Assembly (NCBI GenBank): GCA_964458305.1
Contig: CAYWIH010000005.1
Span: 1,591-65,590, forward strand
DNA: 64,000 nucleotides
From: an uncultured bacterium
GTDB lineage: Bacteria > Cyanobacteriota > Cyanobacteriia > Cyanobacteriales > JASJDA01
Direction: 5' to 3'
The notes below the pieces were generated by a model. The model searched no databases and was not told the DNA's origin. It was given only the letters and a program-made list of their open reading frames with translations. This document shows, piece by piece, positions 32,692-34,910 of this stretch. The stretch's first letter is position 1. Each line of letters opens with the position of its first letter. The position numbers were made by a program, and so were the translations under genes.

Positions 32692-32858
32692 GTTATGCCA
32701 CAGTAAAAGATAACGATTATTGGGAATCTTGGTTTGTTACCTATAACCAGTTTCTCGAAAGACTAAAAAACAAAAAACAATCTGATTATTGGGATCGTTG
32801 GTTTGAAGTTTATTCGGCAAAAATGAGTTTATTGGGATCTAATTCTGCACCACAATAA
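32688..32858 (+). CDS. orf56: Cys-free Trp/Tyr-rich microprotein, translationally coupled to nifB (below the ORF-track size cutoff)
   Basis: Its ATG overlaps the nifB TGA (ATGA at 32688-32691), and AGGAG lies 7 nt upstream. The translation is [56 protein letters not shown], with the internal repeat DYWxxWFxxY occurring twice. Confidence 0.45.
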
Positions 32859-32890
32859 TAAACTTCAAAAATCGGAGATTGAGAGGAGTT

Positions 32891-34075
32891 ATGAGGGACT
32901 GCACATATCTGGACAATAATGCCACAACCAAAATTGATGACGAAGTAGTAGCTCAAATGCTGCCATACCTAACCAAATATTACGGCAACCCTTCGAGCAA
33001 GCACCAATTTGGCGGACAAGTAGCTAAAGCAGTCAGAATAGCAAGAGAAAGAGTCGCTGCTTTGTTGGGTGCAAAAAATAGTTCTGAAATCGTCTTTACT
33101 AGTTGTGGTACGGAAGGAAATAATGCAGCAATTACCTCAGCTTTGTTAGCTAATCCGGCAAAAAAACAAATCGTAACCACCAGTGTCGAGCATCCAGCGG
33201 TACTGAAGGTTTGCCAGAGTTTAGAACGACGAGGCTATCAAGTAACTTATCTCTCAGTCAACGATCGAGGACAATTAAACCTCGATGAAGTAGAAAAAGC
33301 CATAACCGACGAGACAGCTTTAGTTTCCGTCATGTACGCCAATAACGAAACCGGGGTCATTTTCCCGATCTCAGCTATTGGCGAGATCGCTAAAAGTAAA
33401 GACGCTATCTTTCATGTCGATGCAGTTCAAGCAGTAGGGAAAATTCCCTTAAATATGCAAGATAGTTCGATCGATCTCCTCAGTTTGTCCGGGCATAAAA
33501 TTCACGCCCCCAAAGGCATTGGCGCGCTTTACGTTCGTCGAGGTTTTAAATTCTCCCCCCTAATAATTGGCGGCTCTCAAGAACGAGGTCGTCGCGGTGG
33601 CACCGAAAACGTACCGGGAATTGTTGCATTAGGTAAAGCAGCCGAACTCGCAGAGCAAAACTTGTGTAATATAAGACAAGAACGAACGCTGCGCGATCGA
33701 TTAGAAAGTAAAATTCTCTCTACTATCCCCAATACCGCAGTCAACGGAGATACAAATTCTAGATTACCGAACACTACCAATATAGGCTTCAAACAAGTCG
33801 AAGCAGAAGCAATCCTTTTATATTTAGAACGTCAAGGCATTTATGCTTCTTCCGGTTCTGCTTGTACTTCAGGAAATCTAGAACCTTCCCACGTACTTAA
33901 AGCAATGAAAGTATCAGATAGTATAATTCAAGGCTCGATTCGTTTTAGTTTGTCGAAATATAATACCGTCGCTGAAATCGATCGAGTATGTCTTGTATTA
34001 CCTAATATTATTGAAAATCTCAGAAATTTATCTTCATTAGATATCGAAGAAAGTGTAACGGGGACTATCAAATAA
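32891..34075 (+). CDS. nifS: NifS cysteine desulfurase
   Basis: It has the class V aminotransferase motifs YLDNNATT, SGHKIHAPKGIG and SSGSACTSG. The track ORF starts at TTG 32879, but ATG 32891 preceded by GAGAGGAG is more likely. Confidence 0.9.
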   Translation: MRDCTYLDNNATTKIDDEVVAQMLPYLTKYYGNPSSKHQFGGQVAKAVRIARERVAALLGAKNSSEIVFTSCGTEGNNAAITSALLANPAKKQIVTTSVEHPAVLKVCQSLERRGYQVTYLSVNDRGQLNLDEVEKAITDETALVSVMYANNETGVIFPISAIGEIAKSKDAIFHVDAVQAVGKIPLNMQDSSIDLLSLSGHKIHAPKGIGALYVRRGFKFSPLIIGGSQERGRRGGTENVPGIVALGKAAELAEQNLCNIRQERTLRDRLESKILSTIPNTAVNGDTNSRLPNTTNIGFKQVEAEAILLYLERQGIYASSGSACTSGNLEPSHVLKAMKVSDSIIQGSIRFSLSKYNTVAEIDRVCLVLPNIIENLRNLSSLDIEESVTGTIK

Positions 34076-34327
34076 ATGAAAGAGAATAATAAAGAAAAGT
34101 TAAGCCGATCGTTCGCAAAAATAGCTTCACAAACACTCGTCAATCCATCAATGAGATTGGAACTTGAGACAGTTAAAAATATTCCATCCTACTCGATATC
34201 AAAAATATCCTTGCAGCAATTATCCACAAAAAGAAAACAGACCAGACGGTGGCAAAATAGGCTATTGTCGCTCGATCGCGTAGTTGGGAACAACGAGAGA
34301 GAAGCGATCGGCAAACAATCCTTATAA
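34076..34327 (+). CDS. Doubtful 83-aa ORF abutting the nifS stop (not NifU)
   Basis: The ATG immediately follows the nifS TAA. The sequence is low-complexity and K/S/L-rich, with no Cys and no recognisable motif. Confidence 0.2.
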   Translation: MKENNKEKLSRSFAKIASQTLVNPSMRLELETVKNIPSYSISKISLQQLSTKRKQTRRWQNRLLSLDRVVGNNEREAIGKQSL

Positions 34328-34910
34328 ATAAGATTTATTGAAAAATCTCTTCTTTTTAGCCCAAATCTTAAAATTTGTCATCGAAGCAAAGTTAAATTAG
34401 GTATTTTGTCCTATCGTAATAGTAGAAATAAATTAGATAGATATTTACCACAGAAAAAATTAAAGCTTAAAAGCACAAAGAATTGCCGAAATATAACTTG
34501 AATTATTTAAATTCAAAACTCTGTAGTAACTAAAAAAAAGTAGCTCAAACTCGAGACAAACATGATATTTTTCAAGATCGAATCAAAAGGAGAACGCTCT
34601 CCTCCAGGCTTTCTCCTCGAGAAGATCTAAATCGAACCAGAGATATTTAAGGTAAGCCACGGAATTAATAATCCGATCCTCACCTGAATTAGTTGCCCGA
34701 CTTTCTTTCTTTGGCTCTCGATCGCTAGATCCCCTCAACTTGAATGGTGCAAAAAATTAACGCCATTCTTCCTCCAGATTTTAGACAACCAACTTCGGTC
34801 GGGATTGAGATTTACCTAAAAACTCAGTCCTAGCCTTTACCAAAGAAAAACTAAAATCTGCTAGAGACTTAGATTCAAATCAAACCAAAATTATAAGCAA
34901 GAGACTAATT

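Follow-up and report, generated by a model that had tools for sequence, protein, structure and literature searches.

The 64-kb stretch of DNA analyzed here (64,000 nucleotides, hereafter the window), from contig CAYWIH010000005.1 of an uncultured cyanobacterium (GenBank:GCA_964458305.1), contains a nitrogen fixation (nif) gene cluster whose leading operon departs from the canonical order nifB-fdxN-nifS-nifU followed by nifH. A 56-residue open reading frame (ORF) occupies the place of fdxN, and a degenerate relic occupies the place of nifU. Our view is that of the window and of short flanks of related contigs. From nifB to nifH the region contains:

31228-32691, + strand: nifB, intact, with a NifX-like C-terminal domain; TIGR01290, 688 bits against a cut-off of 344
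32688-32858, + strand: orf56, an fdxN remnant of 56 aa matching the FdxN profile; its ATG overlaps the nifB stop codon (ATGA)
32891-34075, + strand: nifS, intact, 394 aa; TIGR03402, 596 bits against a cut-off of 530.75
34076-34327, + strand: orfX, 83 aa, beginning straight after the nifS stop codon (TAAATG) and lying in the +1 frame of the nifU relic
34096-34254, + strand: segment A of the nifU relic, about NifU residues 152-203, with two stop codons
34362-34427, + strand: segment B of the putative nifU relic, about NifU residues 275-296, in a frame different from that of segment A
34489-34910, + strand: native spacer between nifU and nifH, including the nifH leader; non-coding but conserved, with the box TTCTTCCTCCAGATTTTAGACAACCAACTT at 34766-34806
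34911-35786, + strand: nifH, intact; TIGR01287, 464 bits

The interval between the nifS stop codon (34075) and the nifH start codon (34911) is 835 bp in the ORF map. This agrees with the original prediction, made from the sequence without database searches, whose coordinates stand except that nifS begins at the ATG at 32891 and not at the TTG at 32879; the 394-residue product is the one recorded in public assemblies, and the TTG product is not. Its further statement that the other core nif genes are intact also holds. All are full length: NifB, NifS, NifH, NifV, NifE, NifN, NifX and NifW score above their NCBIfam equivalog cut-offs, while NifP/CysE, a NifX-associated protein, HesA, HesB and FdxH are recognized by family-model matches. 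The translated NifS carries both the pyridoxal phosphate lysine motif (SGHK) and the catalytic cysteine loop (SSGSACTSG).

Exact-protein look-ups recovered the same layout, with a spacer of 834-835 bp, in NCBI assembly GCA_050331515.1 (named 'Prochloraceae cyanobacterium'), in the Logan assemblies of SRR6462991 and SRR6462990, and in JGI 3300013759, all independent assemblies that are 97.97-99.97% identical to the window. Four further lineages share the gene order (L091-L093, from Tara and ERR1092xxxx runs; L094, from GCA_013332695.1; L095; and L096, whose contig stops short of nifH), with NifS 78-81% and NifB ~91% identical to the proteins encoded here. Throughout this clade, nifB is followed by a 56/57-aa ORF that overlaps its stop codon by 4 nt, then by nifS, a nifU-free spacer of 727-960 bp, and nifH. 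A collapsed or chimeric region produced by assembly or binning might be suspected from the source, a metagenome-assembled genome (MAG), and from the AT-richness of the spacer (28-36% GC), but the structure, down to the 834-835 bp spacer, is identical in at least four assemblies made independently from different samples with different pipelines, the gene order is repeated in the four further diverged lineages, and there are neither N runs nor flanking repeats. The layout is therefore not an assembly artefact, an explanation to which we give practically no weight, and the assembly error that would have overturned the original prediction did not materialize. The other outcome it had foreseen, that this might be the ordinary documented state of a whole clade, proved half right: the arrangement is clade-wide, but literature searches found no paper that describes it.

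L097, whose NifS is 72% identical, is the next relative and has the canonical operon, including fdxN and a nifU with all three domains. In a set of 67 cyanobacterial nifB loci drawn from one genome per species, every contig long enough to include the nifU position has that gene, except L033 (Crocosphaera sp. Alani8, considered below). fdxN is less constant, being undetected between nifB and nifS in seven of these loci and represented in Dapis (L058) by no more than a tail fragment.

orf56 encodes the C-terminal Trp/Tyr-rich tail of FdxN, kept under purifying selection. It matches the FdxN profile hidden Markov model (HMM) at positions 63-105 only (E=5.4e-16) and, by tblastn, the FdxN tails of ~58 loci; Crocosphaera FdxN, for comparison, ends in ADYWDIWFNRYNKLVGNLKGKQTSPYWEQWFDAYSQEISTL. 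Aligned with full-length FdxN, it consists of 'MSY' plus the C-terminal tail, with the whole 2x[4Fe-4S] domain missing and residues Y11, W12, W15, F16, Y19, W35, W38 and Y42 invariant; the duplicated YWxxWFxxY motif of the tail, a direct repeat at the DNA level with 69-nt spacing, is present directly after nifB. The product has no cysteine and neither of the two CxxCxxCxxxCP motifs, and because it has no Fe-S domain either, it cannot be a ferredoxin. AlphaFold2 (22-sequence alignment) predicts a hairpin of two helices, residues 8-27 and 33-51, with a mean predicted local distance difference test score of 73. Neither Pfam nor NCBIfam holds a family for orf56 or for the tail. Across the clade the amino acid identity of orf56 is 68-86% and its ratio of non-synonymous to synonymous divergence (dN/dS) is 0.14-0.57, and it shows zero nucleotide differences among strains whose nifS sequences differ by 3-4%. 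The original prediction, which had fdxN lacking and orf56 as simply a cysteine-free ORF, was thus correct about the lost Fe-S domain and the absent cysteines and incorrect about the rest, since the C-terminal module is retained as a conserved, nifB-coupled ORF of FdxN descent.

An exhaustive HMMER search found other short tail-only proteins, in the contexts nifB-tail-nifS (L098, 2422-2601) and nifB-tail-nifS-nifU-nifH (L099, 606-815), alongside the Dapis fragment (L058, 11616-11729). Their NifB and NifS identities place L098 and L099 beside the canonical L097 and outside this clade, so it seems that the ferredoxin domain has disappeared on more than one occasion with the tail kept. nifU is intact in L058 and L099; the L098 contig ends in nifS, and L101, from the same JGI sample, has an intact nifU. 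The FdxN of L097 (5391-5951) is 186 aa long because the DYWxSWFxTYNSL tail motif is triplicated, which suggests that the tail is a repeat module able to expand and contract. In Trichodesmium (L057) neither FdxN nor the tail was detected at E<=1e-3.

The 835 bp between nifS and nifH comprise a nifU relic (~34076-34436) followed by ~475 bp of native nifH leader. The relic is seen only by protein-level, stop-tolerant comparison. Translated from 34093 with stop codons ignored, the frame reads KVKPIVRKNSFTNTRQSINEIGT, a stop, DS, a second stop and KYSILLDIKNILAAIIHKKKTDQTVA, against KIKRIIRENNLTSSEQVTNYIKAGGGCS-SCLADIDDILAEVNQEKATTVEVA at residues 152-203 of the L097 NifU; identity is 38% over 53 residues, with E=0.004 for the whole window and 0.81 for the next best match. 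The two best window matches of 62 NifU queries (tblastn) both fall in this segment A. With stops masked, the NifU HMM scores 6.5 bits, a value reached by 0/500 dinucleotide shuffles, and in a codon-shuffle test segment A scores 9.9 bits, reached by 0/1000 codon shuffles. L091, L094 and L096 show this NifU match too, with the relative frame unchanged, and the four-lineage majority consensus, which should be close to the ancestor, gives about twice the score (13.0-14.5 bits against the NifU profile), as expected of a true relic. Segment B, reading QILKFVIEAKLN, a stop and VFCPIVIVE against QTLKVAIEARLQERVSPSLVVE in the L097 NifU (45% identity), falls at positions 831-891 of 900 in the DNA model (nhmmer); it is weak alone and colinear with segment A.

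Position (between nifS and nifH), strand and NifU order are thus those expected of a nifU remnant, and the similarity exceeds chance. The relic starts only at NifU residue ~136-152. Segment A corresponds to the end of the central [2Fe-2S] domain, with the GGGC/SC cysteines replaced and the CRCF codons deleted, and the BFD-like [2Fe-2S] domain (PF04324) with its four cysteines is not found in the relic; nor is the C-terminal Nfu domain (PF01106), of which only the last ~22 residues are left, interrupted by a stop and with the CxxC region missing. Neither transposon-like ends nor junction repeats turned up in a search for repeats. Deletion, which the original prediction had listed as one alternative beside relocation and the use of other scaffolds, is supported directly by these recognizable remains of both fdxN and nifU at their native positions.

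Searches of the window returned no intact copy of either domain set. Scanned for motifs in six frames, the full 64 kb has no CxxCxxCxxxCP outside a CnfR-like gene and no NifU-type motif in a real ORF, as the original prediction had maintained. Six-frame hmmsearch with profiles from 60+ cyanobacterial loci (the NifU profile excluding the L033 NifS-Nfu fusion) gives no NifU match in the window and places the ferredoxin half of the FdxN profile at the CnfR N-terminus only, positions 2-56. The IscU-like domain (PF01592) with its three conserved cysteines is likewise unmatched in the six frames of the window, and a weak NifU-like match at 9046-9132, which sits within a CheA-like kinase, was dismissed. 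The CnfR-like gene was rejected as an FdxN replacement, though it carries the sole 2x[4Fe-4S] ferredoxin motif of the window; besides nifS, hesB is the only Fe-S assembly accessory gene there. These two genes are:

13271-14920, - strand: CnfR-like regulator with a Pfam Fer4 N-terminus and an HTH_3 C-terminus, located by motif scan
45855-46229, + strand: hesB, encoding an A-type Fe-S carrier, a candidate partner for supplying clusters independently of NifU; TIGR00049, 128 bits

Purifying selection on the remaining genes is evident across the clade, with dN/dS of 0.06-0.09 for nifB, 0.06-0.10 for nifH and 0.13-0.19 for nifS at synonymous divergences (dS) of 0.3-0.9. The ratio of NifS to NifB evolutionary rates is 1.9-2.4 inside the clade (loci including L092 and L094), compared with a median of 0.97 for 1159 canonical pairs, and this faster NifS fits a changed partner. 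Within the species, nifS is the most divergent segment, at 3-4% against 0.3-1% for nifB and nifH. Judged by these substitution patterns, the cluster almost certainly functions without a local NifU, and purifying selection on the remaining nif genes would logically imply reliance on other scaffolds.

The ORF that covers the start of the nifU relic, orfX, was described in the original prediction as a low-complexity 83-aa ORF without cysteine motifs. The cysteine motifs are indeed absent, but the ORF is no filler, being conserved in four lineages. Its frame is open in all four (83, 69, 81 and 81 aa; 38-49% identity), its ends are conserved, an RWQ motif is invariant, and all indels have lengths divisible by 3. 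At codon positions 1, 2 and 3 the divergence is 0.42/0.30/0.53, lowest at position 2 and highest at position 3 in all six pairwise comparisons; what is now the least variable position was the third in the NifU frame, indicating that selection acts on orfX and no longer on NifU. Stops number 2-9 in the two remaining plus-strand frames and zero in the orfX frame, and the probability that this frame would stay open if the observed substitutions were placed randomly is 0.02-0.055 per lineage. Open frame, in-frame indels and periodicity are together what would be expected of a protein-coding gene. The predicted product is basic (isoelectric point 10.1-11.8), without conserved cysteines and predicted to be helical. 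NCBI annotates it as hypothetical protein ACFBSE_01035, a word-indexed protein search found only orfX itself, and it belongs to no Pfam or NCBIfam family.

An ORF corresponding to orfX is also present within intact nifU genes. In the six nearest NifU-bearing relatives listed here, the +1 frame of nifU runs for 85-95 codons without a stop:

nifU genes with an open +1 ORF: L097, 7262-8161; L100, 3880-4782; L101, 155-1048; L042, 13426-14343; L102 and L104, ~1501-2415

This +1 ORF starts at an ATG made by the NifU HEEDEG linker (cATGAAGAAGATGAAGGA, read as MKKMKE in the +1 frame) and stops in the LTNLQKI region, the product ending in KKSL, and in all six taxa it aligns start-to-stop with orfX. The same nifU segment usually has 4-5 stops in the +1 frame (146 nifU genes). 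When synonymous codons were resampled with the NifU protein held fixed, 2.8-4.7 stops were expected against 0 observed (P=0.001-0.028 in each of the six taxa), whereas eight other taxa had ordinary +1 stop counts; because synonymous sites are near saturation (proportion of synonymous differences, pS, 0.5-0.77), the six stop-free cases are largely independent. The +1 frame retains the motif WRWQ even as the NifU reading varies (VEVAV, MALAT, VAVAT), and over the linker the ratio of +1-frame to NifU-frame identity is 0.86, compared with 0.61 in controls. Two observations count against an overlapping gene: synonymous divergence is not reduced across the overlap (pS ratio of segment to rest of gene 0.95, versus 1.03 in 1631 control pairs), and the close relatives L099, L103, L050 and L105 are not open in the +1 frame. 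A metagenome scan for further nifU DNA had added at least four close relatives to this comparison. That the +1 ORF predates the loss of nifU is plausible but unproven.

Downstream of the relic, clade members share 71-78% identity over the ~440 bp at 34489-34910. Within this stretch, the 41-nt box (~105-145 nt before nifH) also matches the nifU-nifH spacers of the canonical L097 and L100, and the length of the leader resembles that of the Pleurocapsa (516 bp) and Hyella (509 bp) spacers. A weak stem-loop with 1 compensatory pair follows the box in the consensus structure of the leader; the nifS-nifH region holds no Rfam family, no plus-strand terminator and no plus-strand promoter above chance. 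Transcription of the Anabaena variabilis cluster is driven by the nifB promoter, with a weak promoter within nifU1 and a nifH 5' end that is processed and stabilized by a stem-loop (PMC4284476). The conserved leader described here fits such a processed 5' end, and the 41-nt box may be a processing or stability element of the nifH transcript.

The history that we consider probable is one in which ancestral deletions trimmed fdxN and killed nifU, leaving a working cluster in which both remnant ORFs were kept. Starting from nifB-fdxN-nifS-nifU, the deletions would have occurred in the common ancestor of this Chroococcales clade (NCBI label: Prochloraceae cyanobacterium MAGs). One would have removed the nifB-fdxN spacer and the 2x[4Fe-4S] domain, leaving a hairpin-only ORF of 56-57 aa that the ATGA overlap would couple translationally to nifB. 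Another would have removed the nifS-nifU spacer together with roughly the first 130-150 codons of nifU, which encode the IscU-like scaffold domain; a further small deletion would have taken the CRCF cysteine ligands, and the remainder would have lost its frame and partly decayed until no NifU domain was left. Nitrogenase would still be made. Sulfur from NifS would then pass not to NifU but to SUF, to a small cyanobacterial Nfu, to the HesB of the cluster, or directly to the apo-Nif proteins, and the electron-donor role of FdxN would be dispensable or assumed by other ferredoxins. The FdxN tail and orfX would each be useful alone, most likely as small interaction partners in Nif maturation.

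Several observations weigh against this history. Neither orf56 nor orfX has cysteines or a known family; the relic signal is modest in any single sequence (6.5-9.9 bits), and neither nhmmer, using a model of 62 nifU genes, nor blastn, using the nifU genes of Pleurocapsa and Hyella, gives a DNA-level hit that is significant alone; and within-species changes in orfX, 2 synonymous to 5 non-synonymous, are too few to judge. Only 64 kb of the genome is visible, and to our knowledge all cyanobacteria carry small Nfu-type proteins, both of which leave room for a relocation, in which functional nifU and fdxN reside elsewhere, the operon copies decayed later and Fe-S supply is conventional. The Epithemia turgida endosymbiont, with a remote nifU-like gene of low similarity (PMC8071049), lends this some credit. 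We nevertheless judge it unlikely: the closest homologs of the L097 NifU in the protein collection searched are all in nifS-nifU-nifH context, the Prochloraceae MAG label is found in none of the 120 best NifU matches besides L097's own, and the roughly twofold faster evolution of NifS in the clade is what would be expected if its partner is gone. Decay of the whole cluster, with nitrogen fixation lost and nifU and fdxN simply the first genes to go, would account for the two damaged operon genes and for the faster NifS. Yet the other nif genes are full length and above equivalog cut-offs, and nifB, nifH and nifS have kept dN/dS at 0.06-0.19 over dS of 0.3-0.9 since the loss in four lineages; because of this low dN/dS since the lineages split and the full-length genes, a decaying cluster is ruled out as nearly as such data allow, and we rate it very improbable.

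The conservation just after nifS admits readings that differ in what is being conserved. The main alternative to a translated orfX is a cis-acting element, either a promoter or a signal governing how the nifHDK RNA is processed or stabilized, with the open frame incidental. The weak nifU1 promoter and the stabilized, processed nifH 5' end of A. variabilis (PMC4284476) offer a model for such an element, the downstream leader is strongly conserved non-coding DNA, synonymous divergence does not drop over the +1 ORF in intact nifU, and the same 2:5 count within species points this way as well. Against this, the three-base periodicity runs in the orfX frame in all six pairs, that frame has zero stops in four lineages while the other plus-strand frames have 2-9, its indels are all in frame, its chance of lacking stops is 0.02-0.055 per lineage, and the plus-strand promoter scan gave nothing above chance, all of which make a purely cis-acting explanation somewhat unlikely in our estimation. 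The more ambitious proposal is that orfX is a genuine small protein born as a +1 overlapping ORF in the nifU (codons ~136-228) of Chroococcales/Pleurocapsales, spared from ATG to stop when nifU was lost and then kept by selection, and that the FdxN tail is an autonomous Nif-maturation module that has repeatedly outlived its ferredoxin domain. We advance this only tentatively, as a possibility that we would sooner doubt than assert.

Elsewhere in the window, a DUF2949 protein, a CBS/CP12 protein and an ArsC-like 'nitrogenase-associated protein' (TIGR01616) are conserved small genes of the nif neighborhood (29010-29243, - strand; 26062-27227, - strand), and modA and modBC-like transporter genes lie at 47651-50310. 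A spacer of ~950 bp (30275-31227) separates the divergent cysE/nifP and nifB, with no listed ORF at a 40-aa threshold, and presumably holds CnfR-dependent promoters. Two irregularities were seen in the compared loci. In one Tara scaffold (L091, 1682-3165) nifB is called as two ORFs of 108 and 385 aa, probably through an assembly frameshift error, since nifB is an intact 489-aa gene in the sister contigs L092 and L093. In Aff. Roholtiella sp. LEGE 12411 (L019), nifS, nifU and nifH were not found after fdxN downstream of 5470, though ~9 kb of contig follows; by analogy with Anabaena PCC 7120, this gap is probably an fdxN-interrupting excision element.

The locus would represent a cyanobacterial nif cluster that arose in nature, has long persisted and apparently functions with NifS and without a local NifU or the Fe-S domain of FdxN. 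If the deletion history is right, both components are dispensable in nature in an oxygenic phototroph outside the known endosymbionts, which bears on the minimal gene sets for engineering nitrogenase into plants and algae and points to nitrogenase cluster assembly that depends on NifS and not on NifU. The FdxN hairpin and orfX, selected after the death of their parent genes, are candidates for unrecognized Nif accessory factors. Should orfX prove to have existed within nifU before the loss, it would stand out as an exceptionally clear example of a functional overlapping gene in bacteria, and this clade would be a natural knock-out unmasking a hidden gene inside nifU.

Several known systems share parts of this arrangement. 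The overlapping origin proposed for orfX resembles that of overprinted genes, in that orfX uses the +1 frame of nifU sequence and has a colinear, stop-free counterpart inside the intact nifU of six related taxa; it differs in that the host nifU is dead here and orfX stands alone, the overlap stage being only inferred. FdxN of the Anabaena/Cyanothece type (~115 aa) is homologous over its C-terminal 45 residues to orf56 and occupies the same position after nifB, whereas orf56 is without cysteines or an Fe-S domain; fdxN itself is reported, in a work cited in PMC2246100, to be non-essential in Anabaena variabilis. In Crocosphaera sp. Alani8 (L033) fdxN is absent and most of nifU deleted from an otherwise canonical operon, but NifS is fused in frame to a C-terminal Nfu domain (12337-13188), so that one NifU domain survives; there the same reduction has happened independently and only in part.

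The closest precedent is that of the diatom spheroid-body endosymbionts. In the spheroid body of Rhopalodia gibba, fdxN is a pseudogene and nifU lacks ~170 N-terminal residues (PMC2246100), and in the Epithemia turgida endosymbiont (EtSB) a nifU pseudogene lies downstream of nifS and a nifU-like gene is located remotely, the sole exception among 179 cyanobacteria surveyed (PMC8071049). The likeness extends to the same two genes being degenerate while the other nif genes are intact, and to homology running across shifted frames. The lineage is different, however, with NifS here ~67% identical to that of Crocosphaera and an NCBI label of Prochloraceae, and the window bears no sign of genome reduction, containing large CheA-like, CheB/CheR-PAS and other signaling genes (a weak argument). 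Searching the literature for the sample and assembly accessions gave no hit that would point to a host. Moreover, R. gibba keeps the [2Fe-2S] and Nfu domains where no NifU domain is left here, fdxN in this clade is a trimmed and selected ORF and not a decayed pseudogene, and a conserved ORF occupies the nifU remnant.

Outside the cyanobacteria, the nifBHDKENX-hesA-nifV cluster of Paenibacillus sp. WLY78 is without nifU and nifS, and Suf is thought to supply its clusters (PMC3798268). It shares with the present cluster a hesA-type gene and nitrogenase maturation without a nif-specific NifU, but it lacks nifS too and does not belong to an oxygenic phototroph. In the clade described here nifS is both retained and selected, which therefore implies a route of nitrogenase cluster assembly that is NifS-dependent and NifU-independent.

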